Source: a virus
Lineage: Duplodnaviria; Caudoviricetes
Virus record (IMG/VR): IMGVR_UViG_3300037424_002164
Location: 23,780-87,779 of that record
Direction: 5' to 3' (one strand)
DNA: 64,000 bases
Both the position numbers and the translations under genes were made by a program. The notes beneath the pieces are model-generated. The model was given only the letters and a program-made list of their open reading frames with translations. It ran no database searches and had not been told where the DNA came from. Of the stretch, positions 20,547 to 37,202 are shown piece after piece (within the stretch, counting starts at the first letter, position 1; every line of letters begins with the position of its first letter).

Positions 20547-23500
20547 TCAGAAGCCGGCGGCTGGCTTGAAGGCTGGAGTGCCGAAGGTCTTACGTTTGGT
20601 CGTTCGTTGTCGCTCCAGGGCTTTGGCGCGCCTGTCCTGGTTGCTGGCTCTCGCGACTAAGCCCGGAGCGAACAGATCCAGGGATTGGCGGAGGTATTTG
20701 TTGCCCTGGGAGTACTTTTCCGCCGGGTCCAGGAAGCCGGTAGACTCGCCGAGGGTCTGGCCTACGTCGCCAAAGAAGCTGTTCAGCTCCATGCCGGCGG
20801 CGCGCATCCGCGCCCCCATCGTCGGCCATCCCGCGGGCGTATTGGGATCGACTGACGGGAAGAACTGCGGGTTCAGCCGGCCTGCTTGATCGCGGAAACT
20901 GGTCAGGTAGGTCTCTTTGAGGAAGACCCCGGTGAATACGGAGCGGGGCACCGGGCCGAGGCCCGGGTGGACGAGTGCGTTCAGGCTGTCGCGCTGGGCC
21001 GCCTCGAGTTGCTGCCCGAAATTCCCTCCCAACTGACGTGTTTCGAATGCCCCCGTAAGCCCCAGGGCGCGGGCGCCACGGCCGACCAAGGGGTTAAAGG
21101 CATTGAAGCTCAAATAGCCAGTTTCCGGTCCGTCGCCCCAGAGCGCCCGGCCGAGCTTGGAGTAGCGGTACTTATCGAGAGGGCCATTGCCCCCGCCCAC
21201 CGGAAGCTGAAATAGCTTGGCGCGCCTGTCTTCGGTGGGATATTTGCCCGTGAGCAGCTTCGAGGCGATGACCCAGAACGCGAGCAGCCCGAGCGCGCCC
21301 GCGGTTAACAGGTACATCAGGCGCAGCGCCCGCCAGCCTTTGGGCATCGGCCCCAATCCGGTCCAGGCGTTGACGCCGTTCGCCAGCGCAGTCGATCCGG
21401 CCGTGAAGAACGGAGCGATGCCCCACTCCTTCAAGGCGCGCTCGATCTCGCTCCACAACTCCGGCGTGTAGTTGCCGAGCTGGTTCACAAAGAGAGACCG
21501 CTCTCCGGCTTGGCTTTCCTCGGGGAAGAGCGCCTTGGCAATGTCCCACATCACGATACGCGCCCGCGCATCGAGTCCCTTCGGGCCGTAGAGCATCGGC
21601 CCCAGCGTGAGGGGGAAGTGTTTCAGCGTGGCTCCAGTGGCTTCGGCGTACTTGCGGCTGTAGGTCTGCGATCCATACTTGGAGGGCACTCCTCCGATAT
21701 CGGCCACTTCCAGCAGCTTTTCCAGATTTTCCGGCGTTGTGGGGTCGGTCTGGAGCAGCACCTTCCACACCACCGCCAAGGACTTGACCAGCGGCACGGA
21801 CACCGCTTTGTCGGCGAGGGTAGGACCCAGAAACGGCGTGTTCGAAACGAGCGCGCCCAGCACGTTGCGTGCGTGAAACACCATATCCAGGGGGCCGATC
21901 AGCGAGAGGGTGTTCAGGGTTCGGACGATTTTCCGCGACGGATCGGCCGAGTGAGGTTGGTGCTCGAGGATCGGCTTGAGTTCGCGATGCAGCCACGCCG
22001 GCAAGATGTCCATGCGGGTCTTCAGGGGAATGGTCTTCTTATCCTTGATAAGAGTTCGCGCTTCGGAAACCGGCACCTGAACGCCCGTGTACTCGACGCC
22101 ATTCCAGACGATGGTGTCCTGCCCTTGCTCAGCCGGCTGGAGCAGCCCTTCCTCTTCTAGCACCTTCAACAGGGCAGCCCGGTCGTTGGCGCGAATGGCG
22201 CGGCTCAGCCGTTCCTGGAAGGCTTCCATCCCGACGTCGTAGCCTTCCGCCAGGCCGGTCGCGAATTTGTTGGCGGCGTTTTTCGGCTTCTTGTAGGTCA
22301 CGCGCGAACCGAAAAACCCGGGATTGCGGTCGAACGGAATCAAGGGATAGTAGGTATCGAGCGGCCCCAGAGAGTCAGAAAACACACCTTCATTCAGGGC
22401 GTGGTTCTGCGCCATCGGCGCTTCGACCAGGCGCTTGTAGGCCCGCAAAGCGTCCTGCACTTGCGGATCTGAAGTCACCCTGTCGTACCAGCGCGGCTCC
22501 ATCACTTCGGCAACGTTCGCCGCGGCGTCGGAGAAGGTCTGCCCCAGAAACTCCCGCAGGGTGTCCCAGTCCGCTGCTTCATCCAGGGCCGCCGCGGTTT
22601 CAACTACATCCTGCGGGATCCCGCGCTTCCCCTGAATCGCGCTCAGCAGACCGGCAAACTCCTCTTTGAACACTTCCTGGAGCTGGGTGTCCTCCATTGT
22701 CGAGATTTGTTCGGCGAATCGTTCCCAGCGTTCCCGGATACCGCGGAGCCTCGACTCGATCAGCGCCAGGCGCAACTCGGGCCAGGTGAAATCGGAGCCT
22801 TTGAGCGCATCGAGGATTGTTGGAACAGCCGCGCGCAGGATGACCCTGGACTTGGCGTTGGATGAGGCGGTGCGGAGGGCTTCCCGGTGCACGCGGGCGC
22901 TGGCGCGACGGGTCTGGCCGAGATTGCGGCGATAACGGGTTTCCAGTGGTCCGAACACCCCGCGCAAGCCGCCGTAGTTTACTTCGGCGCTTTCCTCCCC
23001 GAATCTCTCGGACAGCCATTCGCCGATGGAAGCCAGGTCCATGTCCCCGGCTTCGCCGCGCCAGAAGGATTCAACCGGCCTCACCTTGCGCAGGCTCCAG
23101 TCGTTCGCCTCCAGATCCTCGGTGTCGTAGACCATGCTCCGGGCTGCCGTATCGACGTAGAGCGAGTCCGCACCCTTGGCGGCCCGCTCCACGGCCTGGC
23201 GGAGCCGGGAGGGATCGACCGCCTCGAGGCCCTGGATCTCGATCCCATTGCCGCGCGTGCGGATGTAGCCCGAGCGAAGGAGCTGGTCCTTATTCTTGCC
23301 GCGGAAACGGCTCAGATTCTGGTGCTCGGCCTCGGCGCCGAGGGGGATCACTTCGCCTTCCGGAGTGACCCAGAAGCCAGCGGTGCCGCGGCGGGGGGCT
23401 ACTGCTTGGGTGGCGGGGAGGTCGGCGGCTTGGCTTCCTCGGGCGGGAACACCTTGTCGAACTCCTCCGAGTAGTTCCCCCGGAGCTTCGCGCGCGCCAG

Positions 23501-26500
23501 GCGCATAGCCCGGCTGGTAGCCCTGGCGTCGAGCTTCGGCGGCTTTGGTTCGGGTTTCATCGAGGACTCCATTCAATTGTGACGCAATCCGCGGCAGCCG
23601 GGAGACAATTTCTCCCCCGTGCCGCTCGATCAGATAATCCAGATACCGGCTGAAGAGCTGCTTGGCCTCGTCGCGCGAAATGCCCATGCGGGCCCAGCCG
23701 CGCGGCCCTTGCGCCAGGTGCGCGCCGATCTCGGCGGCCATGGCATGCATCTCGTACTCGCTGGTGATCCGCGGGTAGCCCGTTTCGGTGAGTCCCCGAA
23801 GCGCCCGGCGGGCGAGCTGGTCTTGGAGGAATGACTCGGCGTCAATGTGTTCGACGCCAGCCTTCCCCTCGCCGCCTGCCTCCTGTGTCTGGAACCAGTG
23901 GAAGCGCTCGTGCTTGATGCGCTCCCGAAGCCTCTGCCAACTGTCTCCCGGGCGGTGGCCGACGATCAGCAGGGGCCGGAAGTCCGACACTCCCGCTTCC
24001 AGCTCCGCGGCGATCGCTTCAATCTTCGCGCGCGCCTCGGGCGAGACGTTCGGTGCGACTTGGCGCAGCGTGTCCACCATCCGCAGGACGCTCGTGGTGG
24101 TGAAGTGCATCCCGGCCCAGGTTTGCTGGTGTTTGGGAAGCACCGCTTTGAGCAGGTTGAGCGCGTTCTGGTCGGCCCACAGGAAGCGGGGCTCGGTTTG
24201 ATCGTGCAGGAATAGCTTCGGATCGGCGGCCGCCAGCTTTTCGAATTGCGGATAGTAGGTGGGCGGGTGCTCCGGGAGGGAGTCTTCCTCCAGGGAGGCG
24301 AGATCGCCCTGGGGTGGATTCTCCGCCGGGGGATTTTGGGTCGCGTCCACCTTCGCTCTTAGCCGTTCGAGCGATTCCTCTGGGGTCTCGTCCGGCGCCT
24401 CGAATTTCTCCTGGAACCGCTCGAATTTCTCCTTGAATCCCTTGGGCATCACGGCCCAGTTCCAGTCGAGTGAAGCCTCAGCCTGGCGCGCGAACGCAAC
24501 CGCGTGGTAGTCCTGGTGGAAAAAGTTTCCCATCCGCTTGCCGCTGGGAAGGTGGATGACCTCGTACGACTTACCCTTGGTCACTTCCCTGACCCCAAGG
24601 TACTTGCCGACGACGCGCACCTGGACCGGGTACTTGCCGTAGTCGCTCGCTGCAAAGATCCGCCGGGACGGGAACCAGTCCGCATGCATCGAGGTGGTTG
24701 GATCCAGGCGCATCGGCCGCAGGGGATCCCGCCGGTTCGCCTCTTGTTCCTCGTCCGCGCCGAGCGCTTGCCGGTCATTCGCTTCCGCGCCGAGCTGGTC
24801 GGATAGTTCCTGCTGCCGGCGGAGCATCGTGCGGAGCTTCTCTTCACCCTTGAACGGCTGGCCAAGCCTGCTTTCGAGCTCCACCTGCTGTTTCTCGAGT
24901 CGGCGCAGTTGATCCTTACCGTGTTGCAGGCTCTCTTCGAAGCCGCGCAGATGGTTGTCGGCCGATGCGATGGTGCCGGCGGGGTTGGCGTCATAGTTGA
25001 CGCTGACCCGGTAGGTGCCGGAAGCCGCCCGCAAACGAAGTTGCGGCGCACTGAAGTACTTGAGCTCAAAGCGGCTCTCCATCTTGTCCCATTCCACATG
25101 GACCTGAGTCGCCCGGGAAAGGTCCAATTCCTTCAGACCAAAGGCATCTCGTTTATGGATGTCGTGCCAGTTTTGTTGGAATCCTTGTGCCGTTACCTGG
25201 TAGTACAGCCACTTGTTGTCCGGCGTCATCTCGCGAGCGAAAAGGAGGTTGGCGCCGACACTCTGGTCGGTCTTGGAATGCCTGACCCCAAGTTCGGCGA
25301 AATGTGGCGTGGCCTCGAGCGGAATGCCGTGGTACGTCGTTTCGATTGACTGCGGTTCGGTGATGACTCCGACCTTTTTCAGGCGCTCGATGAGGATCGG
25401 GGCGCCCTCGGCCCGAATTTCCTTCTCCTCGTAGCGCTTCCCGTCGATGACCAGCGCACTGTCGGAGTTCCGCGCGGCAATGTCGGTGGTGAAATTCTCG
25501 ACCCGCTGTCTCGCTGCTTTGGTCTCCTCCGGCAGGGTTGCGAGGGTTTGGGAGATCGTGGCCTGTTCGGTCAGCCAGGTTCCGCGCATGATCTCCGCCT
25601 TCAACACTTCCTGGTCGAGGATGATCTTCTCCCGCACCAGCGGGTTGCCGGAGGATACGGCCTTCGCCTGCTCGTAGCTCATCACCGCGGGCGAAAGCTC
25701 CTCGATCCGGCGTACTGCCGGATCTCCGTTCATGAACTGCTGGATCGGTTTGGCCTTCGCCGAAACCGTCTCCCACATGAAGGCGTCGAACGTTCCTTCC
25801 GTCATGTAGCGGTAGATGCGGACCGGGATCTTGTGCTCGTCCCAGAGTTTGTTGCCCTGGCGTTTGATCCGTCCGTCGCGCTGCTCGATGTCGCGCGGGC
25901 GCCACGGAGCGTCCAGATGGTGGTTGGCGATCAGCCGTTCCTGCACGTTCATGCCCGCGCCCATCTTTTCGGTCGATCCGATCAAAACGCGCACGTCTCC
26001 GCGATTCACCCGCTCGTAAAGCAGGAGCTTCTGTATGTCGGTCTTGGCGTCATGGATGAAGGCAACCTGTTCCGGCTTGAAGCCTCGCGCGATCAGCTTC
26101 TGCCTGATCTGGCCGTAGACCGTGAATATCTCCCGCTGCTCGTCGGTGGTCACGACTTCTTCGGTGACTTCCTCCTCCTTTTCGTCGTAGAGCGTCTCCT
26201 CTTGGTCCGCGACGTTGGCCACTTCCTCTGCGGCTGCCGGTTTCGCTCGGGTGACTTTCTCCGACTTCGGGGTGGAGAGATCCAGGAAGACGAGTTGCGC
26301 GGCGCGATACTGGCCGAATTCCTTGTTGATGGCGACGATGTTGTCGATCGCTTTCGCGACTTTGCTGACCGGCTCCTCTTCGGCCAGCGGATCGACCAGC
26401 CGCATATCGAGCGAGGCCTTGCGCCCGTCGCTCGAGAGTTTCAGCATGTTGTCGATCGAGGGGTCCTTGATAACGCCGTTGCGGATGTCGTCGGCACGCT

Positions 26501-29500
26501 TGCCAATCTCCAACACGTAGGCCTTCTGCGCCGCCGATGCCGGCGCGACGACGTCGATCGGGCCGCCCTGGTAGACGGCGGGGGTGGGCAGGTTGAGCTT
26601 TTCCGCGGTCTGGATATCGGCCGCCAGCCGGAACATATTCATCAGCTCCGGAGCGTTGTGAAACTCCGCGAACCGGCTGCGCGAAATGAAGCGGCCGCCT
26701 TCAGGGGCTACCTCCATCTGGGTGCGGACTTTTCCGAACGTCTTCGCCCAGGCGTCGAACTGGTCCAGGCCCTCGCGCTCGAGATACTGGGGAATGAGGT
26801 ACCGCATCATCGTCCAGATTTCGGCGATGCTGTTCGACACCGGGGTGCCGGTGGCAAACACCAGGCCGCGATCGCCGCCGTGCAACTGGGAGACGTACCG
26901 GGTTTTGAGAAGCATGTCGGTGGCGCGATCGGCGTCGGAGTTCGGCAAGCCGGCCACGCGGTCCATCATGGTCAGGTAGCCCAGGTTCTTGAAGAGATCC
27001 GCTTCGTCCACGAAGAGCCAGTCCACGCCCAGCTCCTCAAAGGTCACCCCGGTATCCTTCTTTTCCCGCTTCGTTCGTTTCTCGATCTTCGCCTCGAGTT
27101 GCTTCTTGCGCCGGACGAGCTGCTTCACCGTGGGGTCTCGGCCCGCTTCGCCCTTCTGCTTGCCCTTGCTGAAGGTTTCAATGGCCGCCTCGAGTTCCGC
27201 GACCTGCGCATCCATGAATTCCTTGAATGTCTCGTCCTTCACCGCGAGTAGCTGGAAGTGCGTGTGCCCGACGATCACGGCATCATAGTTTCCGGTGGCG
27301 ATCCGGCTCATGAGCTTCCGGCGGTTCTGCTTGTCAAAGTCCTTTTTCGTCGGCACCAGAATCTGGGCGCCCGGGTAGGCCAGCAGGAAGGCGTCTTTCC
27401 ATTGCCCAACCAGGTGATTTGGCACTGTAATCATCGGCTTGCGGGCGAGACCCAGGCGGCGCAGCTCCATGGCCGCCATGGTGATTTCGAGCGTCTTGCC
27501 GGAGCCAACCACGTGAGCGTAAAGCGTGTTGCCGCTTTGTATCGTTCGCCATACGGCTGTCTTCTGGTGGGGATCGGGGTCCTGATTGCGCAGCCAGGTC
27601 CGGTTCAGCCCTGGAAACGTCTGGTGGGAACCATCGAACTCGCGCAGTTTGAGATTGTTGCGTTCTTCGTTGTACTTGCCTTTCAGCCGGTTCGCTCGTT
27701 TGGAATCGGACCAGAGCCATTTGCTGAACTGATCGACAAGCGCCCGTTGCTTTTCCACTGCCTCGATGGTGGCCTCGGCATTTTTCACCATCACTGTTGT
27801 CGGGTAGCCGCCGGCGGTATACCCCACCTCCTCATCGCGGGCCACGGGCATCTTCCCGTTGATGGCGAACTCCAGCAACTCCATGCCGGAGAAATACGCG
27901 GTGCCGTAGTCCACGCTGTTGGCGACGCCTTTGTCGCTGAAGGTGTATTGCGGGCGGATCGCGAAGCTGCCGGTGAGCGGGACGTACTTCACCAGATCGG
28001 TGGCGCGCGCCTCGGACTCCTCGACCCGGAGCACTTCCCGCAGGAAGTCGGAGTAATCGGTGTCCGGGATCCATGTCGCCCCGAGCGGCGCATCGATGTC
28101 GCCGATGTCGAGGTCCCGCGGCTGGATTGCTTTCAGTGCTTCGACGTTGGGCAGGAATTGGGGGTCCTCTCCGGCGGCAAACTCAGCGTCCCGCAGTTTC
28201 TTGCGCACGTTGCCGGAGAGGTATTCGTCCCTGGTTTCCCAGCTCTTCGTGATGGGGTTCCGGTAGATTTTGCCGCCCAGTTCCTGGCGCAGCTCCTCCG
28301 GCGTGCGGCCGGTCAACTCCTGCATCCGGCTCCAGTCGAGCCGCCCGAGATCGTTGAGCGAGACCGCCAGCGCCTCGGCGCCGGTTTCGACGCTGGTGAT
28401 GCGCGGCGGTTTCTGAATCGTCCGCTCGCGGAACATCGCCCGCTTGGTGGCGGTCTTGGTGTCTTTGTTGTAGTCCTCGAGTGCGGTGAGCAGCGGCCAG
28501 TCCGGATCCTCCCCAAAGACCAGGGAATTGCCGTTGCCATTCACCGGGCCGTGCCGTTTGACGAAGTGGTCGTAAACTCGGTTCAGGGCTTTGCGGGCGG
28601 CGAGGATCTCTTTCTCTTCGAATTCGTGGCGCTGGGTTCGGATGACCTCCCGCGCGGCTCCGCGCAACTCGATCAAGGCTTTGGCGCGATCGAGCTTCTT
28701 TCCCTTGAGAGGCAGTGGCCGGAAATAGGCGCCCTCCCGCCGGACCAGCGCGCCGTCGACGTAGGCGATCTGGCCGTCCTTCATGAACTGCGCGTCGGGG
28801 TAGTTTTCAACCAGGTTGTCGCGCGCGCCGGAAGGCTGCTGCTCCCAGGACGGGATAACGCCCTCGGGCAGGCGGGCGAGCATCTTGTCCAGCTTGTCGA
28901 GCGAGAATTCGCCAAACAGCTCGGGGTAGCCGCGGCGATACTGCGTGCCGGCGCCCATCTTGCCCATCATCATTTCAGGGTGCCGGTGGAAGTACTCGTT
29001 GACGTCCACCTTGAACCCGTCGTCCGTGTCCAGAGTCCGTGACTCGACCCACTTCTCGTCGGAAACGGGGACGCCTTCGGGAATCCGCCGGCGTAACGCG
29101 ATGATGTCAACCGTCACCGAGGTACCGGCGTTGGCCAGGAAGGTGTCGCGCGGCAGCCGGATCGCTCCCAGCAGCTCGGCCCGCTCGTTCACCCAGCGGC
29201 GGAAGGCCGGAGCTTTGGAATCCATCGTGTAGCGGGACGTGATGACGAGCATCACTCCGCCCGGGCGCAACTTCTCGACCGATTTGGCGATGAAGTAGTT
29301 GTGGATGTTCTCCGTCAGGTACGGAGTGCGCCGGAACGCCGCATCGTTGACTCCGACGTTGCCAAAGGGCACATTGCCGATCACCAGGTCGAAGTAGCCG
29401 TCCGGCAGGTTCGTTTCCTGGTAGGGCTTGATGACGATGTTCGAGCCAGGGTAAAGCGCCCGCGCCATGGCGCCGGTGAGAAGATCCATCTCGACGCCGG

Positions 29501-32500
29501 TCCGCCCGGTGCCGGGCGTCAGATCCTCCGGCATCATCATGAAGAAATTGCCGCTGCCCATCCCGGGCTCGAGCAGGGAGCCGCCCGCGCGGAATCCGAG
29601 GCGGCGCGCGGCATCCCACATGGTTCGGGCCAAGTCCCGGCGGGTGTAGTGAGCGTTGATGGTGGATTCCCTAGCGGCCTCGAATTCCTCCGGCGTCAAC
29701 AGGCCCTCAAGCTCCTCGCGGATCCCGGCCCACTCGCGCTTGTAGCCGAAAATGCCGTTGGCCAGCTCCGAGTCGCCCCAGCCGACGTACTTGGCGATCG
29801 CCTGCTGCTCTTCGATGGTGGGGGCGCGGTTCTCCGCCTGAACCTGCTTGACGATACGAATGGCCGCGAGGTTGTTCTGGGCTTTGGTGCGGGCGCCGCC
29901 CCGTTCAGCCTGGGCGGCCTGTTCAGGGGTTAGGCGGAAGTCTCCATCGATAGACCGAGGTTCGACGGCGTCAACTCGAGGTTGGGCTGCTCCTCTTCCT
30001 CCGGGAGGCGATACCACTGGTGGTCGGCCAGTTCGACTACCTTCTCCCAGCTCAGGCCCTGCTGCGTCAGGCTGACCCGTAGCTCCACGGTCAGAAACGC
30101 CGCCACGAGCACCAGGCGGTAGAGCACTTTCGCCTTCTCCATCTCCGCGCACATCTTCGGGCGGAACTCCTGCCAGTGTTTCAGGACCGCCTGGGCGAAG
30201 GGCGTCTCCTCCACCTCTTTGTGGGCGGCCGGCTCCGGCAGTTTCCGTGCCTGTTCGAGGGTGAGTTCGGCGGTCTCCGGCATCGGGTTGCTCCGCCTCC
30301 ATTATGCTCTTTTTTTCGGACTCGGGAGCCGTGATTTGATCGGGTTCAGCGGCTTCGGGTACCAAGGGTTCTACCGCTGCTTCAGGGGACGGAAGCCCTG
30401 CTTCCTTCCCCTCGACCCCTTCCTTCCTTTCGGACAGCGGCTTGGCCGTGTACTCCTCGTCGTCCCAGAAGTAGTTGGGGGCCTGGTTTTCGAGGCGGGA
30501 TTCGGCGGCATCGGCCGCCATCCAGCGGGACATCAGTGAATCGCCCGCGTGGTCGGCTTCTTCCTTGGTCGCGAAGAACTGGCCGTTGGGCGTCCACTCG
30601 TTCTTGACCTTGACGTAGACGCGGTAGCTTTTCGCGGGCGCCTTTACCGACTGTTCGGGGCCGCCCGTGTCCTTCCGGAGATCCCGGGCATCAAACGGCA
30701 CGTATTCGATGGTCTGTGTGGCTACATCAGGTGCACCTTCACCAGCGGGATGCGCGCGGACACGGTACTCGGTCTCGCTCACCGACGTGATGTAGCCGTA
30801 CTTCTCCTGGCCGCTCGCGTGTGTCCAACGGATGGTGTCTCCCTGGGAGAATCGGCGGGGGCCGGGCTCTGGGCGAGGGGTAGCCGGTGCCTCGGGTGCT
30901 TTCTTTTCCTGCGCTGCCTTCAGCGCCTGGGTGCCGGCAGGGTTGCGAGCGAAGGATATATTTCCCCCTTCCTCTGGCCCGCGGCGAATCAAACCCAAAC
31001 GCAGCAGTTGGGCGAGTCCGTTATTGAAGGCATCCCGCGTGAGGTTTTCAATATCGGAGGCAACCGATTCTTCAAGGCTGCCGCTTTGAGTGACGCGGTT
31101 GGTTTCGAGGTTTCTGATGATGGAACGCTCGATAACACTAAGCTGAGCGGCTTCAGGGGCACTTGGCGTCTCTGTCGTGGGCTGCCCATGGGGTGTCGCA
31201 ACGATCTTCCGGCTGATCCGCTGCACATCAGGGAGCTTGTCGGCGTCGATGATCCACGCCTTCTGTTCTCCGTTCCACCTTCCTCCCAGCTTCTTGATCT
31301 GATTCCGGTGGACGTAGGTGTCGCCGGTGAGGGCGTACTGCCCTGCCTCGGGTGTTTCTTTCCTTGTTGACTCGCCCGCCGGGAGCGCTTCGGGGGCCGG
31401 TTGACCGCTCGCCATCCGGGGTTCCGTCTCCGTCTTGGCGGACGTACCCGGGCGTGCCGGGGGTTGAGCGGGTTTTTCTCCCTGTCCTGCCGCCTCCTGC
31501 TTCGGGGCTTCAGTCTTCGCCTTCTCCTCGACCTTCTCAACCCTGCTCACGTGGACCGGACGGAACATCCCGAACCTCTGATCCGGCTCCTCACCGATGA
31601 ATACAGTAAAGCCCTCAACGCGACTGACGTAACCTTCCCGAGTCTTTCCTTCCTTGTCGGTCCAGCGGACGTGGTCATTCTTCTGGAACCGCAACTCCGG
31701 AGACTTCAATTCCTGAACGACACCGCCGCCCGGAAGTTTGTGGGTGACAACCGGGTCTGGAGCGGGCGCAGGCTTGGCAGGCTCAGCCGGTGAGCCCTTC
31801 AACTCGATCTCCGTCTGCTTCCCGCTCTTGTCGGAGAACACGATGCGGTCGAGCGTGATCTCCTGGCCGGTGATCCCGGGGATTTCCTTGCCGGTGTACT
31901 GCTTGCCTTTGCCGTCTCTCAGGTAGGCGATGGTCGCGTGCGGCTTATAGCCCGGGTGCGTCTCGGTGTTCGGCAGCGCGTCTGCGATCTTCTCGTTGAG
32001 CCGCGCCAGGTCCGGAGACTCGACGTCCACCTTGAGTACGTCGCCGTTGTCGGTGCCGGCGAAGATCGAGGTTTTACCGAGCTTCAGTTTAACCGGCGGC
32101 TCATTGGCGATCAGTTTGCGAACGGCTTCCGGCTCGCCGCCGTGCAGGCCGTACTTGATGGTGATGTGCGGCTGGGTCTCGCGACCCTTCGCGGCTGATT
32201 CCCCACCGTACTTGGCGCCCGCTTCAGATGCCAGGTGCTCATCCGGGATGGTTTCGCCAAACGCAAGGATCCTTGCGGCAATCGGCCCTTGCAGGTTGAC
32301 TTGCGTGGACGCATAGTCGAACTGTTCCTTTTCCTCCGGCTTCACGCCCCTCATCCGGTCGGTTTCGCCCTCGATCCAGTTGCTCGCGTCGTCGTACAGC
32401 TTCTGGGCGTGGGGTACGATCCAGTCTCCGAACTCCTCGGAGAGTGCCGTGGTGAACCGGCCCATGCGGTGGTGGCCGGCGAGAATCTTGTGGGCCGCAA

Positions 32501-35500
32501 CCGTCTTCAGGTCCGGCCATAGTTCCTTGAGATCCTCGGGGATCCCCGTGTCGGCCGGCTCCTCGATCGAGGCCAGGTCGCCCTCGGTCCCACGGCGCCG
32601 CTTCAGCGCTTCTTTGATGCGCGCGCTCGCGGCCGCGGCGTCTTTTTCGAGGCGCGTGCGCAACTGCTCGGAGATTTCCTGGTCGGAGAGCTTGACGGCG
32701 GGTTTTTCTGGTTCTGTCCGGGGCTTCCCGGCGGGCGCAGGTTTTCCTAGTTGACTAGGAATTTCCTGTTTGGCTGCTGCTGGCGGGGACGCAACCGCTG
32801 GTTCGCCGCTTGCGGCTCCGAAAGCAGACTTCCCCGCGGCCCCTTCTTCCTTTGCCGCAAACCCCACCCGCTCCACCGTCAGCTTGCCCGGCTCGGCGTC
32901 CCTGGCTTGCTCCTTGATCGCTCCGCGCACCCGCTCGCCATAGGCCCGGACTTCGGCTTCCTCGAGCCCGGTTGCCTTGGCCACAAACGCCACGTAGTCG
33001 GCGTCCCGCTTCGAAGGGGTCTTTTGTGCGGTGATGTAGGCGGCCCGGTCGACGTCGCTGGCGAATTCGATCTCGAAGGACTTGTTGCCGTAGTTGTAGC
33101 GCGGCATCGCGCCGGAGAGATGGCGGGGCAGCTTGCGCTCAGGCTCCTGGGCTACGGGGGTGACTTCGTCCGGATCGAGTGTGACGACGCCGGCGGCCGC
33201 GGGCGGGGCGGCTCTCTGTCGGTAGTCTTCGACCCATTTGGAGAATTCGCGTTTGTCGTCCATGCTGGGGATGCCCAGCTTGTTGCGGACTACCCGGACC
33301 AGTCGGGCTCGGTCCATTCCCTCGAATCCGGCGTCTCCTACGTTTTTGAGCTTGTCTCCAAGCCGTTCGGCAACCTGTTTTGCCGTCAGTTCACTGGCGC
33401 TCAGCCGTTCTACTTCGTCAACAATGCCAAGCCGTTGGGCCAGTTCAAAATCCCGGTCAATCGCCTCTTGGAGCCACGTCTTCTCGCCAGTCTGGATCGG
33501 CACCGGCTTCCCCGCCGCCTCAGCCAGCTTCTTGCGCCCGCCTTCGACCCGCGCCCGGAATTCCTGGAGCATCGCCTTGTCGCGCCCCGCTTCGACCCCC
33601 TCGGTTGCCGTCTCTGGCTCGGCAGCGGAAGGTTTGGCAGGCGGCGCGAATGGTTCATCCTTCCAGTACGTGGGAGCTGTCACCAGCTCGATACGCTCTG
33701 CGCCTGCGGCTTGCGCCTCCTGAAGTGTCCGGTAGTACGGACTCCACTCGCCCTTGATCTCGCCCTGGTATACCTTCCCTTCCGGAGCGACAGCCGGAGT
33801 CGTGGAGGAAACAGGGGGTGCGGGGGGAGAAACCAGGGGTTTCGCCCCTTGCGGCTGCGGCTTCCCTTGCGCGTCGAGTACCCCCTCCTGTTTCATCCTC
33901 CGGACAAGCGCCGCCCCCTGGTGCCGGGGAATCTTTAACTCCGTCCACAGCGCCTTGTCGGTGACGGGCCCGGTGGCCGCCCGGGCAAACTCAACGGCTT
34001 TCTGGTACGACTGCTCGGCTGCTTCCGTTTCCGGGCTGACCTGGGATGGGGTGGCAGGAGGCTCCGCAACCTGTTGAGGCGGCGTGACCGGCTTTTGGGG
34101 CGGCTGGGTAACGGCTGGTTGCCCGGTATCACCTGATACCGGAGGCGCCAGGAATTGCTGTTCGAAGTCGGCCAGACCCAGAGTGCCCCGGATCTTGTTG
34201 CCGGCTTTCATCTCCTTCTCGAAGAAGACCCGGCCCTTTTTGACCTCGAGCACGCGGGTGACCCCCGAGGGGGTCTCGAAGGTTGCGCCTTTGGTGATTT
34301 CGGGGGCGACGGCTTCTGATTCCGCCTGGGCCGGCCGCTCGGCCTGTGGAAGCTGGGTCCCTTCGCGTCCGAGTTTCGCCCGCTGCTTCTGGATGTCCGA
34401 GATCCGGGAGTCGGCCTCTTTCATGACCGCTTCGGCGTAGATGTCCCGGGTTCCTTCGTTGCGCGCCTGATCGGCGATGGATTGGGCCTCAGCGCGGTCC
34501 GCTACGGCTTGCGAGTAGTCCAGGTCCAGCCGCGTCGCGGTTTCTTCCGGCGTTCCTGCTCCGCCGCGCTGTTCAATGCGCGTGCGAATCGTCTCGGCGC
34601 TCCCGGCCGCAAGCCGTTTGCCGGTGGCCTCGTCGATGAGTACCCATTGCGGCCGGCCCCGGCCCTGCGCTCCAGCCGGTGTCGTCGCGCCCTCAAAGTG
34701 GATGCGGACTGCTGTGCCGTTCAGATCGAGCTTGATGTCCTCGCCGAAGATCTTGCCCCAATCCTCGGTGGCGATCTTCTGAGCTTGCTCGCTCCAGGCT
34801 TGCGCCGCCAGACGCTGGCCGCTCTTCGTAAGCGCGGCCGTTTCCTCGACGGCGGTTTTCAGGCGCACCTGGCGGGGCGCGCCGCGCGCGGGGATCTCTC
34901 CGACCGGATATGCCTCTGCCGCGGTACGCCCCGCCTTTACCGCTCCCGCGGCGGCGAGCGCCGCTATGGCCGCGCTGCCGAGCGCTGCCGCTCCGTGTTC
35001 CGTGGCGGCAATGTAGTCTCCCCGCTTCGCGGCTTTCCAGGCCGCGTCTCCCTCCAGAATCGTCCCATTGCCGGCGAGCACGGCGAACCCGGCCGGGACC
35101 GCCGCCATGGTGGCGACGTCAGCCGCCTTCATGACGACCGGGGAGCCTTTCAGCAACTTCACGGCGACGGGAAGGTTGACGACTCCGCGCAGGAGATTGG
35201 TCGCGCCCGCGCCCAGCGCCACCATACCGGCGCTTTCCATGCTGGTCAGAGGTTCGACGGCACCCGTCAGGCCGCGCTCTGCTGCGATGAGTCCTTCGAG
35301 CGGATTCCCCTGCGCCTCCTCGGCCGTGGGCAGCAGCAGCGACGGCCGCACGATCGGTTCTCCCATCGGCCGCGCGTACTTGTTGGTGATGTTGGTCTCG
35401 ACGAAGTGTTTGCCGAATCGTTTCAGCCCTTCCGGGATGGTGTATTCCGGGCGAATCGAAACCTCAACTCCCGGCACCCCCGGCGTTCCAGTCCGCTCCG

Positions 35501-37202
35501 CGCCCGGCGGCACCTTCAGATCCGCGTACCGCTGGAGGTTCTCGTTGAACAGCCCGAGGCCGGTGTTGTAGTCCTCGATGTCCGCTCCATGCTGCGCAAC
35601 GGCATTTTCCAGTTCGGCGATAACCAGGTTGTGCAGCTTGACCTTTTGATCGAATGCGGCCAGTTGCTCGGGGGGTGAGTCCGGACCGATTTGCTGGGCT
35701 TCCGCCTCGATCGCGGCTTTCCGCGCCAGGGCCTCCTCGCCCTGCGCCGTCAGCGTCAGGCGGATTACGCCGAGATGGTCCCGCTTGGATTCAAGCTCGG
35801 CTTCGCTCGGAATCGGAACGGGCTCGACCTCGGCGGGGTCGAACTCGACGGTCGCCGCTTGCGCCGGGATTTCCGGGATTGCAGGTAGCGCTAGTTTCCG
35901 GATTTTGGCGGCGGCTTCAGGATGCGTTTTTCCGAGACTCCCCAGAAAGTCCGCGAGAAAAGCGTTCCGCTGTTCCAGCGTGATACCTGGAACGTCTTCG
36001 GGGCGGAATGCGGCCATGTAGGATGGAGCTTCCAAAAGTTGTGAGAGCTTATCCACCCCACGACCCTCTTTGGCGAGAACCCCCATGATCTCGGGGTGCT
36101 TTCCCGCCATCGTCTTGTAGAGGTTCTCGATTGCCTCGGAACCCGCTGGATCTAGCGGATCTCCGAGTGTCTGATCGAGCAGGTTGTGCACCGTCTCGTG
36201 GAGGACCAGCCGGCGCTGTTCGTCCGGGTTCTCTGCCGGGTTGATGTAGATCGCTCCGCGGCCCTTGGGGATCTTGAGCCCCGGAAACTTGTCGGTGATG
36301 AGTTTCGCGTACTCCGGCACCGGCTCTCCGTACCCGGTGAGTCCAACGCCCGGTTGATCGACCTCCGGAATGTCCTTCGTTTCCGCGAAGATGATGGGAG
36401 CGCGGGTGTGGCGGCTTTCCGCGTAGGTCGGCAGGTTGCCGGCGAAGGAGTCGCGCGTGGTCGGCTTCAGCTTGATACGACCAGATTCGTAATCCTTGTG
36501 GAGCTGCTCGGCGTAAGAAGTGGCGGCATTGGCATCCTGGAAGATGCCCAGGTGCTTGCCGGTCTTGTGGTATTCCTCCTCTGCCGCTTTTCTGCTGAGG
36601 AAACGGCCATCGGGCGTAACCCTCGGAACCAGGATTTCCTTGCCGTCTTCCTCGAAACTGGTCGAGTCGACGGTGCTGGTCTTCCCTGGCTTCTCGGGAT
36701 TCGGAATCGCTGGCTGGGAAGCCAGGTCAATGTTGCCCGGGGTGAGAAGGCCCGGAATCGGAGCGACATCGGCCGGGTCGAACTCCTGGGGACCGGTGCC
36801 ATTGCTCTTGCCGGTGATCTTCTCCACGTAGTCCCGCGTTTCCTTGGGCCACGGATCGCCCCGGGCCACCCGTGTGGGCCCGAGATTGTAGGCCGCGGTC
36901 GCTTTGACGGGATCGTTATTGAACCGCTTGAGCAGGTCGCGGTAGTAGCGCGCGCCGGCGTCGATGTTCTGTTCGAGGTTGTTCGGATCGATTCCGTACT
37001 CCTTCACGGCGGTATCGGGCATGAGCTGCATCACCCCGATCGCGCCCTTGGGCGACACCCTGGACTGATCGAAAGCGCTCTCCTGCTGCGCCATTTTGAC
37101 GAGGTGATCCGGATCGAGGCCGTAGGTTTGGGCGGCCTGGCGCACAAGCGTCTCGATGTCGGTTTCGACCTCGGAGGGGTCGAGCAGCAGGTATTCGGGC
37201 AT
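20547..37202 (-). CDS. Giant polyvalent ejection protein (gp16 position): SLT transglycosylase, two HExxH domains, 2H phosphoesterase, DarB-like N6-adenine MTase plus SNF2-type helicase
   Basis: 5551 aa; QES/GAIGVMQLMP/AAYN (SLT); HITI and HATI (2H); LEPGMGSGNF and VIGNVPFG (MTase); HVVGSGKT, VDEAD, ATGTP, PWRP..IEQR.GR..RQGN (SF2). Confidence 0.93.
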   Translation of the reverse strand: MPEYLLLDPSEVETDIETLVRQAAQTYGLDPDHLVKMAQQESAFDQSRVSPKGAIGVMQLMPDTAVKEYGIDPNNLEQNIDAGARYYRDLLKRFNNDPVKATAAYNLGPTRVARGDPWPKETRDYVEKITGKSNGTGPQEFDPADVAPIPGLLTPGNIDLASQPAIPNPEKPGKTSTVDSTSFEEDGKEILVPRVTPDGRFLSRKAAEEEYHKTGKHLGIFQDANAATSYAEQLHKDYESGRIKLKPTTRDSFAGNLPTYAESRHTRAPIIFAETKDIPEVDQPGVGLTGYGEPVPEYAKLITDKFPGLKIPKGRGAIYINPAENPDEQRRLVLHETVHNLLDQTLGDPLDPAGSEAIENLYKTMAGKHPEIMGVLAKEGRGVDKLSQLLEAPSYMAAFRPEDVPGITLEQRNAFLADFLGSLGKTHPEAAAKIRKLALPAIPEIPAQAATVEFDPAEVEPVPIPSEAELESKRDHLGVIRLTLTAQGEEALARKAAIEAEAQQIGPDSPPEQLAAFDQKVKLHNLVIAELENAVAQHGADIEDYNTGLGLFNENLQRYADLKVPPGAERTGTPGVPGVEVSIRPEYTIPEGLKRFGKHFVETNITNKYARPMGEPIVRPSLLLPTAEEAQGNPLEGLIAAERGLTGAVEPLTSMESAGMVALGAGATNLLRGVVNLPVAVKLLKGSPVVMKAADVATMAAVPAGFAVLAGNGTILEGDAAWKAAKRGDYIAATEHGAAALGSAAIAALAAAGAVKAGRTAAEAYPVGEIPARGAPRQVRLKTAVEETAALTKSGQRLAAQAWSEQAQKIATEDWGKIFGEDIKLDLNGTAVRIHFEGATTPAGAQGRGRPQWVLIDEATGKRLAAGSAETIRTRIEQRGGAGTPEETATRLDLDYSQAVADRAEAQSIADQARNEGTRDIYAEAVMKEADSRISDIQKQRAKLGREGTQLPQAERPAQAESEAVAPEITKGATFETPSGVTRVLEVKKGRVFFEKEMKAGNKIRGTLGLADFEQQFLAPPVSGDTGQPAVTQPPQKPVTPPQQVAEPPATPSQVSPETEAAEQSYQKAVEFARAATGPVTDKALWTELKIPRHQGAALVRRMKQEGVLDAQGKPQPQGAKPLVSPPAPPVSSTTPAVAPEGKVYQGEIKGEWSPYYRTLQEAQAAGAERIELVTAPTYWKDEPFAPPAKPSAAEPETATEGVEAGRDKAMLQEFRARVEGGRKKLAEAAGKPVPIQTGEKTWLQEAIDRDFELAQRLGIVDEVERLSASELTAKQVAERLGDKLKNVGDAGFEGMDRARLVRVVRNKLGIPSMDDKREFSKWVEDYRQRAAPPAAAGVVTLDPDEVTPVAQEPERKLPRHLSGAMPRYNYGNKSFEIEFASDVDRAAYITAQKTPSKRDADYVAFVAKATGLEEAEVRAYGERVRGAIKEQARDAEPGKLTVERVGFAAKEEGAAGKSAFGAASGEPAVASPPAAAKQEIPSQLGKPAPAGKPRTEPEKPAVKLSDQEISEQLRTRLEKDAAAASARIKEALKRRRGTEGDLASIEEPADTGIPEDLKELWPDLKTVAAHKILAGHHRMGRFTTALSEEFGDWIVPHAQKLYDDASNWIEGETDRMRGVKPEEKEQFDYASTQVNLQGPIAARILAFGETIPDEHLASEAGAKYGGESAAKGRETQPHITIKYGLHGGEPEAVRKLIANEPPVKLKLGKTSIFAGTDNGDVLKVDVESPDLARLNEKIADALPNTETHPGYKPHATIAYLRDGKGKQYTGKEIPGITGQEITLDRIVFSDKSGKQTEIELKGSPAEPAKPAPAPDPVVTHKLPGGGVVQELKSPELRFQKNDHVRWTDKEGKTREGYVSRVEGFTVFIGEEPDQRFGMFRPVHVSRVEKVEEKAKTEAPKQEAAGQGEKPAQPPARPGTSAKTETEPRMASGQPAPEALPAGESTRKETPEAGQYALTGDTYVHRNQIKKLGGRWNGEQKAWIIDADKLPDVQRISRKIVATPHGQPTTETPSAPEAAQLSVIERSIIRNLETNRVTQSGSLEESVASDIENLTRDAFNNGLAQLLRLGLIRRGPEEGGNISFARNPAGTQALKAAQEKKAPEAPATPRPEPGPRRFSQGDTIRWTHASGQEKYGYITSVSETEYRVRAHPAGEGAPDVATQTIEYVPFDARDLRKDTGGPEQSVKAPAKSYRVYVKVKNEWTPNGQFFATKEEADHAGDSLMSRWMAADAAESRLENQAPNYFWDDEEYTAKPLSERKEGVEGKEAGLPSPEAAVEPLVPEAAEPDQITAPESEKKSIMEAEQPDAGDRRTHPRTGTETAGAGRPQRGGGDALRPGGPETLAGVPPEDVRGDGEGESALPPGARGGVSDRGATGQPDAAGPELGEGSRTGRPPVVSPPGGRGAAQPRVDAVEPRSIDGDFRLTPEQAAQAERGGARTKAQNNLAAIRIVKQVQAENRAPTIEEQQAIAKYVGWGDSELANGIFGYKREWAGIREELEGLLTPEEFEAARESTINAHYTRRDLARTMWDAARRLGFRAGGSLLEPGMGSGNFFMMMPEDLTPGTGRTGVEMDLLTGAMARALYPGSNIVIKPYQETNLPDGYFDLVIGNVPFGNVGVNDAAFRRTPYLTENIHNYFIAKSVEKLRPGGVMLVITSRYTMDSKAPAFRRWVNERAELLGAIRLPRDTFLANAGTSVTVDIIALRRRIPEGVPVSDEKWVESRTLDTDDGFKVDVNEYFHRHPEMMMGKMGAGTQYRRGYPELFGEFSLDKLDKMLARLPEGVIPSWEQQPSGARDNLVENYPDAQFMKDGQIAYVDGALVRREGAYFRPLPLKGKKLDRAKALIELRGAAREVIRTQRHEFEEKEILAARKALNRVYDHFVKRHGPVNGNGNSLVFGEDPDWPLLTALEDYNKDTKTATKRAMFRERTIQKPPRITSVETGAEALAVSLNDLGRLDWSRMQELTGRTPEELRQELGGKIYRNPITKSWETRDEYLSGNVRKKLRDAEFAAGEDPQFLPNVEALKAIQPRDLDIGDIDAPLGATWIPDTDYSDFLREVLRVEESEARATDLVKYVPLTGSFAIRPQYTFSDKGVANSVDYGTAYFSGMELLEFAINGKMPVARDEEVGYTAGGYPTTVMVKNAEATIEAVEKQRALVDQFSKWLWSDSKRANRLKGKYNEERNNLKLREFDGSHQTFPGLNRTWLRNQDPDPHQKTAVWRTIQSGNTLYAHVVGSGKTLEITMAAMELRRLGLARKPMITVPNHLVGQWKDAFLLAYPGAQILVPTKKDFDKQNRRKLMSRIATGNYDAVIVGHTHFQLLAVKDETFKEFMDAQVAELEAAIETFSKGKQKGEAGRDPTVKQLVRRKKQLEAKIEKRTKREKKDTGVTFEELGVDWLFVDEADLFKNLGYLTMMDRVAGLPNSDADRATDMLLKTRYVSQLHGGDRGLVFATGTPVSNSIAEIWTMMRYLIPQYLEREGLDQFDAWAKTFGKVRTQMEVAPEGGRFISRSRFAEFHNAPELMNMFRLAADIQTAEKLNLPTPAVYQGGPIDVVAPASAAQKAYVLEIGKRADDIRNGVIKDPSIDNMLKLSSDGRKASLDMRLVDPLAEEEPVSKVAKAIDNIVAINKEFGQYRAAQLVFLDLSTPKSEKVTRAKPAAAEEVANVADQEETLYDEKEEEVTEEVVTTDEQREIFTVYGQIRQKLIARGFKPEQVAFIHDAKTDIQKLLLYERVNRGDVRVLIGSTEKMGAGMNVQERLIANHHLDAPWRPRDIEQRDGRIKRQGNKLWDEHKIPVRIYRYMTEGTFDAFMWETVSAKAKPIQQFMNGDPAVRRIEELSPAVMSYEQAKAVSSGNPLVREKIILDQEVLKAEIMRGTWLTEQATISQTLATLPEETKAARQRVENFTTDIAARNSDSALVIDGKRYEEKEIRAEGAPILIERLKKVGVITEPQSIETTYHGIPLEATPHFAELGVRHSKTDQSVGANLLFAREMTPDNKWLYYQVTAQGFQQNWHDIHKRDAFGLKELDLSRATQVHVEWDKMESRFELKYFSAPQLRLRAASGTYRVSVNYDANPAGTIASADNHLRGFEESLQHGKDQLRRLEKQQVELESRLGQPFKGEEKLRTMLRRQQELSDQLGAEANDRQALGADEEQEANRRDPLRPMRLDPTTSMHADWFPSRRIFAASDYGKYPVQVRVVGKYLGVREVTKGKSYEVIHLPSGKRMGNFFHQDYHAVAFARQAEASLDWNWAVMPKGFKEKFERFQEKFEAPDETPEESLERLRAKVDATQNPPAENPPQGDLASLEEDSLPEHPPTYYPQFEKLAAADPKLFLHDQTEPRFLWADQNALNLLKAVLPKHQQTWAGMHFTTTSVLRMVDTLRQVAPNVSPEARAKIEAIAAELEAGVSDFRPLLIVGHRPGDSWQRLRERIKHERFHWFQTQEAGGEGKAGVEHIDAESFLQDQLARRALRGLTETGYPRITSEYEMHAMAAEIGAHLAQGPRGWARMGISRDEAKQLFSRYLDYLIERHGGEIVSRLPRIASQLNGVLDETRTKAAEARRQGYQPGYAPGAREAPGELLGGVRQGVPARGSQAADLPATQAVAPRRGTAGFWVTPEGEVIPLGAEAEHQNLSRFRGKNKDQLLRSGYIRTRGNGIEIQGLEAVDPSRLRQAVERAAKGADSLYVDTAARSMVYDTEDLEANDWSLRKVRPVESFWRGEAGDMDLASIGEWLSERFGEESAEVNYGGLRGVFGPLETRYRRNLGQTRRASARVHREALRTASSNAKSRVILRAAVPTILDALKGSDFTWPELRLALIESRLRGIRERWERFAEQISTMEDTQLQEVFKEEFAGLLSAIQGKRGIPQDVVETAAALDEAADWDTLREFLGQTFSDAAANVAEVMEPRWYDRVTSDPQVQDALRAYKRLVEAPMAQNHALNEGVFSDSLGPLDTYYPLIPFDRNPGFFGSRVTYKKPKNAANKFATGLAEGYDVGMEAFQERLSRAIRANDRAALLKVLEEEGLLQPAEQGQDTIVWNGVEYTGVQVPVSEARTLIKDKKTIPLKTRMDILPAWLHRELKPILEHQPHSADPSRKIVRTLNTLSLIGPLDMVFHARNVLGALVSNTPFLGPTLADKAVSVPLVKSLAVVWKVLLQTDPTTPENLEKLLEVADIGGVPSKYGSQTYSRKYAEATGATLKHFPLTLGPMLYGPKGLDARARIVMWDIAKALFPEESQAGERSLFVNQLGNYTPELWSEIERALKEWGIAPFFTAGSTALANGVNAWTGLGPMPKGWRALRLMYLLTAGALGLLAFWVIASKLLTGKYPTEDRRAKLFQLPVGGGNGPLDKYRYSKLGRALWGDGPETGYLSFNAFNPLVGRGARALGLTGAFETRQLGGNFGQQLEAAQRDSLNALVHPGLGPVPRSVFTGVFLKETYLTSFRDQAGRLNPQFFPSVDPNTPAGWPTMGARMRAAGMELNSFFGDVGQTLGESTGFLDPAEKYSQGNKYLRQSLDLFAPGLVARASNQDRRAKALERQRTTKRKTFGTPAFKPAAGF
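23399..23560 (-). CDS. Candidate nested out-of-frame small gene inside the giant gene
   Basis: MKPEPKPPKLDARATSRAMRLARAKLRGNYSEEFDKVFPPEEAKPPTSPPPKQ; GGAG 6 nt upstream of the ATG. Confidence 0.4.
   Translation of the reverse strand: MKPEPKPPKLDARATSRAMRLARAKLRGNYSEEFDKVFPPEEAKPPTSPPPKQ
29930..30283 (-). CDS. Candidate nested out-of-frame gene (TnpV-like pattern) inside the giant gene
   Basis: 117-aa helical protein; GGAGGCGGAG SD 7 nt upstream; host frame is low-complexity here. Confidence 0.6.
   Translation of the reverse strand: MPETAELTLEQARKLPEPAAHKEVEETPFAQAVLKHWQEFRPKMCAEMEKAKVLYRLVLVAAFLTVELRVSLTQQGLSWEKVVELADHQWYRLPEEEEQPNLELTPSNLGLSMETSA

Follow-up and report, generated by a model that had tools for sequence, protein, structure and literature searches.

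Within the linker of a giant phage gene lies a complete 117-codon open reading frame (ORF), written one base out of frame with its host, that very probably constitutes a genuine gene for a small, acidic, TnpV-like protein predicted to be all-helical. The ORF was identified in a 64,000-nt stretch (hereafter, the window) of a complete 87,779-bp virus record (IMGVR_UViG_3300037424_002164), where it occupies positions 29930..30283 (-), beginning with ATG and ending with TAA. It resides in the +1 frame of a 5,551-aa ORF at 20547..37202 (-), since (37202-30283) mod 3 = 1, and just before the methylase-helicase module of that protein. Stop to stop, the nested frame is only 6 codons longer upstream. 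At 30291..30300 (-), inside the host coding frame, is the Shine-Dalgarno (SD)-like sequence GGAGGCGGAG, whose GGAG ends 7 nt before the nested ATG. The initial annotation had proposed a nested gene here on the same strand and in a different frame, and this is supported by codon periodicity, homologs, predicted fold and conserved layout, although the evidence is comparative and computational. Our literature searches for TnpV, for polyvalent proteins with overlap and for nested genes with methylase-helicases found no paper describing the arrangement.

The enclosing gene appears to encode a polyvalent virion/ejection-type protein, with modules comprising an SLT lytic transglycosylase, a 2H phosphoesterase, a putative DarB-like N6-methylase, an SNF2 helicase and a membrane-spanning C-terminus. 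Its neighbors are phage head, head-closure and DNA-ejection genes. The methylase module (820 aa; 27471..29929 (-)) starts right after the nested stop, which falls exactly where the conserved methylase N-terminus begins (DFRLT...AIRIVKQ), and has 19 homologs at 39-62% identity. Notably, the Pfam hits of the methylase-helicase region are all just under their cut-offs, namely an Eco57I-like methylase at 23.9 bits (cut-off 25.3), SNF2 at 21.2 bits and Helicase_C at 20.9 bits, and the DarB-like designation is accordingly provisional, though Bcep22 gp75, annotated as “DarB-like,” matches the profile of this module at 4.4e-232. Over the 354 bases of the nested gene itself, the host frame reads as a low-complexity linker rich in Gly, Arg, Pro and Asp.

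Evidence for the nested gene comes from the pattern of substitution in the overlap. Among 29 non-redundant loci, differences per site at nested codon positions 1/2/3 are 0.111/0.076/0.256 for pairs of 85% nucleotide identity or more, 0.152/0.118/0.336 at 75-85% and 0.266/0.172/0.471 at 65-75%, such that the wobble position is that of the nested frame. Correspondingly, amino-acid identity is 0.83/0.79/0.69/0.40 in the nested frame, compared with 0.69/0.59/0.42/0.26 in the host frame and 0.68/0.58/0.43/0.27 in the closed third frame; the host-frame protein is thus no better conserved here than an untranslated reading. Importantly, in both immediate flanks, the methylase downstream and the host N-terminus upstream, the wobble position is the third position of the host. 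Protein-level purifying selection in the overlap therefore acts on the nested frame, and the suggestion of the initial annotation that the host frame is of low complexity because it is constrained by the overlapping gene is supported. Nevertheless, the host frame is also maintained. Recoding each nested protein with local codon usage leaves the host frame open in 0.3-45% of trials, which gives 1.7 of 23 loci expected against 23 of 23 observed, and overall the host frame spans the nested gene without a stop in 147 of 160 loci, whereas the other frame does so in 2. The giant gene accordingly reads these bases as a linker whose sequence is free, but which must stay stop-free so that the upstream modules remain joined to the methylase-helicase. 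Comparative evidence here cleanly separates two kinds of constraint: sequence on one frame and mere openness on the other. By contrast, openness of the nested frame alone is not strong evidence, as it is expected, given the host protein and codon usage, in 13 of 23 loci.

Further support comes from the protein encoded by the nested ORF (P0001). It has 80 homologous cluster representatives, all small proteins of 76-226 aa, and neither of two searches found a long protein carrying the domain in frame, although the second of these constitutes only weak evidence. The AF2 model is confident (pLDDT 89.3, pTM 0.80) and predicts six helices (residues 9-91) followed by an acidic LPEEEEQP tail. With respect to initiation, an SD core of 4 nt or more is found at 14/29 non-redundant nested starts against 14.7% of control +1-frame positions (P 2e-5). 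Half of the nested starts, mostly in the Verrucomicrobiota class, nonetheless lack a recognizable SD, and no internal promoter or terminator was found around the nested gene on its strand, so expression must ride on the host mRNA. We infer that ribosomes start at the internal GGAG...ATG on the late mRNA of the giant gene and make the small protein separately.

The initial annotation likened the protein to TnpV-type proteins, and this is supported indirectly. P0001 itself gives no hit to Pfam PF14198 (TnpV) even at E <= 10, and searches of Pfam and PHROGs with P0001 alone returned nothing useful; PF14198 likewise has no hit in the phage's own genome. However, 20 of 73 relatives hit PF14198 (best E 1.8e-5), and two nested relatives, those of loci L018 and L071, score 35.1 and 28.1 bits, respectively, above the curated cut-off of 27 bits. 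P0001 in turn aligns to the L018 protein by BLASTP at E 9e-12, with 33% identity over 82 aa. Because its family assignment is transitive, we refer to P0001 as TnpV-like, a distant relative rather than a PF14198 member. Like TnpV of Tn4451/Tn4453-type mobilizable transposons, it is a small helical protein (roughly 80-125 aa) on a mobile element, but this clade carries its own HW.E.RPKM and W.(F/L)LP.EED.P motifs, and canonical tnpV is a free-standing gene beside a serine recombinase (PMC3158075). Other searches were less informative. Searching the phage and plasmid collections by tblastn with P0001 gave no match, though the protein of a relative found one Brucella plasmid. No convincing structural match emerged from Foldseek against the PDB (best E 2.7) or from VIA-align (best 2apl_A, Z 6.4 over 61 residues, below the level meaningful for helical bundles), the best match in BFVD was Q8W6J4_2 at E 0.029, and a sequence-profile search of the PDB found only designed helical repeats. 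The ESM Atlas gave only sub-threshold leads, including one Verrucomicrobiota cluster with 11% TnpV members at score 0.82.

Interestingly, the small gene and the methylase-helicase occur together in three layouts. In cyanobacterial loci L109, L128 and L155 they are adjacent and non-overlapping, the small gene ending 28 nt before the methylase-helicase start. In Verrucomicrobiota and others, the small gene is nested in methylase-helicases of about 1,720 aa, which start 40-70 nt before the nested ATG. Lastly, it is nested in giant proteins in phages. Whereas the initial annotation regarded the small gene as overprinted on the linker, the existence of free-standing and adjacent forms, together with selection on the nested frame, suggests that the direction is probably the reverse. 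We infer that a tnpV-like gene originally sat directly upstream of the methylase-helicase gene, as it still does in cyanobacteria, and that the methylase-helicase reading frame was later extended upstream across it, first as a short N-terminal extension and then as fusions to other polyvalent modules. Reading through in the -1 frame would have been the way to fuse without losing the small gene.

The initial annotation further proposed that the small protein could be a dedicated partner or regulator of the methylase-helicase. This is plausible from linkage, and it remains a tentative possibility, somewhat short of an even chance, that the TnpV-like protein works together with the DarB-type methylase-helicase as a bound partner, chaperone or regulator, with the overlap guaranteeing co-inheritance and co-expression. 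Co-folding of the methylase module with the nested protein offered only weak support: the score was 0.53 and that of the best of 3 controls 0.01, runs agreed in at least 88% of contacts, and the pLDDT of the partner was at least 77. The mark was reached by 58 of 80 solved complexes and 2 of 110 mismatched pairs, but at 0.60 or under it was reached by only 7 of those 80 and by both mismatches that passed, placing our result in a score band that is more often wrong than right without a good prior. A strictly dedicated-partner model is also weakened by the facts that canonical TnpV genes, whose function is unknown, sit in transposons without a methylase-helicase (PMC3158075) and that some family members found here (loci L092, L093, L119 and L156) have none within 6 kb. 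More speculatively, and with considerable doubt, TnpV-like proteins could be obligate partners (a bound subunit, packaging chaperone or activity switch) of DarB-type methylase-helicases across phages, conjugative elements and chromosomal islands of many phyla. Nesting would then be a selected device, with internal initiation on the giant mRNA fixing the ratio and timing of the two products and making the pair inseparable by recombination; the flexible linkers of many polyvalent proteins would be coding sequence for hidden genes, and TnpV, unexplained since the 1990s, would gain a function in anti-restriction or DNA establishment.

Of the alternatives, the one that survives best, though we consider it unlikely, is that the small protein is an Xis-like DNA-binding or excision accessory factor, or a regulator of element establishment, with no direct interaction with the methylase-helicase, the overlap being only a by-product of gene fusion in compact mobile elements. 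TnpV of Tn4451 was postulated to act in excision by similarity to lambda Xis (PMC3158075), and the TnpV genes without a nearby methylase-helicase are in keeping with this view. However, the element examined here is a phage whose giant gene lies among head and ejection genes, the small gene tracks the methylase-helicase through three architectures and several phyla, and the co-fold with the methylase module passed, albeit weakly. Much less likely is that translation starts at the nested ATG and that a -1 frameshift near its end yields a TnpV-methylase-helicase fusion alongside the free small protein, in the manner of IS3 OrfAB or the phage tail chaperones G/GT. The host frame is indeed the -1 frame of the nested gene, the nested stop abuts the methylase module, and the adjacent, same-direction layout in cyanobacteria is the usual starting point for such fusions. 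Yet this model needs the host frame open only near the slip site, not across the whole nested gene or into upstream modules, and no slippery motif was seen on reading the sequence. Moreover, in hosts of about 1,720 aa a conserved host-frame N-terminus (M..RR....QLDLF) with host periodicity lies upstream of the nested ATG, a pattern which argues that the host is translated from its own start. Similarly improbable is that the TnpV-like segment is an in-frame domain of the giant protein, reached through two compensating frameshifts (sequencing or assembly errors) or programmed +1 then -1 ribosomal frameshifting. The nested ORF does fill exactly the gap between two host modules, and the BFVD match Q8W6J4_2 (prob 1.0, TMq 0.58) lies inside a long viral protein; however, the same out-of-frame layout recurs in 147 of 160 independent loci from many assemblies, the nested frame is closed by a stop 6 codons before its ATG and ends in a stop, the host frame would not need to stay open and yet does, and no slippery heptamer was seen near either end. 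Finally, a chance shadow ORF, left open by a Gly/Arg/Pro-rich host segment in a 63% G+C genome, its homologs being shadows of a conserved host protein, is in keeping with a nested frame that, given the host protein, stays open in 8-87% of recodings across loci and with the many long alternative-frame ORFs of the window, but is contradicted by the codon periodicity, as well as by relatives that pass the TnpV cut-off, the confident predicted fold and the enrichment of SD cores.

Well-supported long same-strand nested genes are rare in bacteria and their phages, and gene callers discard them by design. Precedents for a complete small gene with its own start wholly inside a larger gene in another frame likely include lambda Rz1 within Rz (+1 frame) and comS within srfAB of Bacillus subtilis; in the present case the embedded gene appears to be the older, folded and conserved partner and the enclosing frame the unconstrained overprint, and the pair is conserved across several phyla, in phages and in chromosomal elements. 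Our results tie the orphan TnpV family to putative DarB-type methylase-helicases and suggest that a whole class of low-complexity linkers in polyvalent anti-defense proteins hides a conserved gene. A parallel may be found in P1 DarB and its small accessory protein Ulx, in which a virion-associated methylase-helicase is genetically coupled to a small protein of about 100-150 aa, both being reported as required for anti-restriction (as cited in PMC9144972 and PMC11437467). Ulx is not detectably homologous to the TnpV-like family (hhalign probability 0.3%), ulx is downstream of darB and does not overlap it, and our family profile found no hit among all ORFs of P1 darB or of Bcep22 gp75; in locus L014, however, the TnpV-like gene follows the helicase gene directly, as ulx follows darB. 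Bcep22 gp75 belongs to a Lessievirus, and JC1 gp69 is virion-associated by mass spectrometry (PMC9144972). The nested ORF of Bcep22 is only faintly similar to TnpV (E 0.045) and to this family (hhalign probability 27.7%), and it is left unannotated in the public record, as is the ORF in that of a Brucella phage-plasmid. Even so, this 106-codon +1-frame ORF, with a GAAGGAGG SD, sits in the low-complexity linker of gp75 just before the methylase module.

The minus strand of the window carries one giant ORF at 20547..37202 (5,551 aa), inside which, in the +1 frame, lies a 117-codon ATG ORF at 29930..30283 (-). Stop to stop, the nested frame is only six codons longer upstream, and the sequence before the ATG is GGAGGCGGAG followed by 7 nt. 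Over the same bases the host frame reads a Gly/Arg/Pro/Asp-rich stretch, and the nested stop coincides with the first conserved residues of the host's methylase module. Everything that the initial annotation had described here, namely a nested gene with a strong Shine-Dalgarno in the low-complexity linker just upstream of the methylase, is present. The genome itself is a complete 87,779-bp virus record with terminal repeats, in which the giant gene lies among the major-head, head-closure and DNA-ejection genes. The giant gene carries SLT, 2H-phosphoesterase, Eco57I-like methylase and SNF2-helicase signatures, and its methylase module matches Bcep22 gp75, annotated as a “DarB-like antirestriction protein,” at 4.4e-232. 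Initial annotation had also flagged a second short out-of-frame ORF, at 23399-23572 (-), in another low-complexity linker of the same giant gene.

The openness of the nested frame alone proves little as to whether it is coding. When the host protein was recoded with local codon usage, the +1 frame stayed open in 8-87% of trials, such that 13 of 23 loci would be expected to be open. However, four other lines of evidence are decisive. First, a phmmer search against 1.84 billion representatives found 80 relatives, all of which are small proteins of 76-226 aa and none of which is part of a long protein; a separate search for longer carriers likewise found none. Second, we collected more than 160 related loci from viral, metagenomic and genomic collections, with the caveat that the E-values of these locus scans are relative to the candidate sets only, and examined codon periodicity in 29 non-redundant overlaps. 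Differences per site at nested codon positions 1/2/3 were 0.111/0.076/0.256 at 85% nucleotide identity or more, 0.152/0.118/0.336 at 75-85%, and 0.266/0.172/0.471 at 65-75%. The wobble position is the third base of the nested frame, which is the first base of the host frame. Amino-acid identity in the nested frame was 0.83/0.79/0.69/0.40 across the bins, and the host protein is no more conserved than a non-coding frame. Importantly, periodicity switches back to the host frame immediately downstream, in the methylase, and upstream, in the host N-terminus. Third, AlphaFold2 with the 73-sequence alignment gives a confident predicted six-helix protein (pLDDT 89.3, pTM 0.80). Finally, Shine-Dalgarno cores precede 14 of 29 nested starts, against 14.7% of control positions (P 2e-5).

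That the host frame is also read through is supported by inference. Given each nested protein and local codon usage, the host frame would stay open in 0.3-45% of recodings, which predicts 1.7 of 23 open loci, but all 23 were open. Across all 160 loci with a complete small ORF, the host frame spans it in 147 and the remaining frame in 2, and in an independent set of species genomes the count was 70 of 78 against 0. Many of the metagenomic loci are near-duplicates, and we therefore also report clustered counts: the host frame spans the small ORF in 44 of 56 clusters below 85% identity and in 18 of 26 clusters below 60% identity.

With respect to family, the nested protein (P0001) alone has no Pfam hit. 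However, 20 of 73 relatives hit PF14198 (TnpV), and the nested relatives at two of the collected loci, L018 (35.1 bits) and L071 (28.1 bits), exceed the curated cut-off of 27 bits. P0001 aligns to the L018 protein at E 9e-12. Accordingly, we refer to it as TnpV-like, a distant relative rather than a strict PF14198 member. The clade has its own motifs, HW.E.RPKM and W.(F/L)LP.EED.P, and is acidic, with pI 4.1-6.4. No solved structure matches convincingly. The only structure-library hit with high Foldseek probability, BFVD entry Q8W6J4_2 (1.0, TMq 0.58, 96 columns, E 0.029), lies inside the second 1,093-residue piece of a long viral protein, and could be either an in-frame TnpV-like domain or a mis-called frame.

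Three main layouts recur among the loci. In Cyanobacteria (L109, L128 and L155), the small gene is free-standing and ends 28 nt before the start of the methylase-helicase gene, which begins directly with the methylase module. In methylase-helicases of about 1,720 aa, which come mostly from Verrucomicrobiota MAGs, the host ATG lies 40-70 nt upstream of the nested ATG and the whole small gene is nested in the N-terminal extension of the host. Interestingly, these proteins start with M..RR....(D/N)QQLDLF; QL[DNESQ]LF occurs in 116 of 126 such N-termini, just upstream of the nested start, and host-frame codon periodicity holds there. QL(S/D)LF is likely the consensus for binding the beta sliding clamp, so these enzymes may be clamp-tethered, although the giant protein of the window has no such motif. 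In the third layout, giant polyvalent proteins of phages and a phage-plasmid, the small gene is nested in the linker before the methylase module. These are the window, loci L001-L003, L018, L023 and L083, and Brucella pseudintermedia plasmid NZ_CP137607, a RefSeq-annotated phage-plasmid in which a clear nested family member (family HMM E 3.5e-23) lies at L087:8917-9315 (+) inside the “PLxRFG domain-containing protein” and is not called by PGAP. A few copies deviate from these layouts by following a helicase gene or by having no methylase-helicase within 6 kb. At L014:2322-2663 (+), the TnpV-like gene is free-standing and starts 3 nt after the stop of a helicase C-terminal ORF, giving the order helicase then small gene, as in P1 darB-ulx and the reverse of the usual order. 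One Verrucomicrobiota copy, at L115:5886-9121 (+), has its methylase-helicase broken into many frames, with the small ORF running on into methylase sequence, and is a decaying pseudogene of the module.

Taken with the selection pattern, these layouts point to an ancestral tnpV-like gene beside a methylase-helicase gene, the frame of which later extended across the small gene. The linker is thus the overprint, which reverses the wording of the initial annotation, where the small gene was said to be overprinted on the linker. This ordering is nonetheless an inference, made without a rooted tree. What the comparisons do show is sequence constraint on the nested frame and openness constraint on the host frame. 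Since no internal promoter or terminator was found, we infer that the small protein arises by internal initiation on the late mRNA of the giant gene.

An old suggestion of an Xis-like role for TnpV, the function of which is unknown, rests on weak similarity (PMC3158075). The persistent linkage to the methylase-helicase through three architectures suggests a partnership. Co-folding of the 820-aa methylase module with the small protein gave weak support for this idea: the score was 0.53 and the best of three controls 0.01. The mark was reached by 58 of 80 solved complexes and 2 of 110 mismatched pairs, but at 0.60 or under it was reached by only 7 of those 80 and by both mismatches that passed. 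Runs agreed in at least 88% of contacts, and the pLDDT of the partner was at least 77. The partner model remains tentative, and at best about as likely as not. The DarB of P1 also depends on a small neighbor, Ulx (as cited in PMC9144972 and PMC11437467). Ulx, encoded at L088:9995-10435 (-), is not homologous overall to this family (hhalign probability 0.3%), though it does share a short tail motif, W-H-L-L-P-V-P-E-E-V-D-D, with the W-x-(F/L)-L-P-x-E-E-D-x-P of the family (P0001 residues 86-102). This could be a convergent short linear motif for binding DarB-type proteins, or it could be chance.

Of the alternative explanations, a -1 frameshift fusion from the nested start cannot be fully excluded, but it does not explain why the host frame is open across the whole gene, nor why a conserved host N-terminus with host periodicity lies upstream of the nested start. 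Sequencing frameshifts, or a double programmed frameshift that would place the domain in frame, are contradicted by the recurrence of the layout in independent assemblies, by the stops that bracket the nested frame, and by the maintenance of the host frame. A chance shadow ORF is excluded by the codon periodicity.

Full-text searches, and the 2017 survey of polyvalent proteins, do not mention TnpV or any overlap there, and the public annotations of Bcep22 and of the Brucella plasmid do not call the ORF. The present analysis adds a separate, more divergent clade in a different phage lineage, the about 1,720-aa and non-overlapping architectures, and an explicit test of the two constraints. In the cultured phage Bcep22, a convenient experimental system, an unannotated 106-codon +1-frame ORF at L089:8338-8658 (+), inside gp75 (record AY349011, 47950-61758), is preceded by a GAAGGAGG Shine-Dalgarno and lies in the low-complexity linker just before the methylase module, but its similarity to TnpV is only faint (Pfam E-value 0.045).
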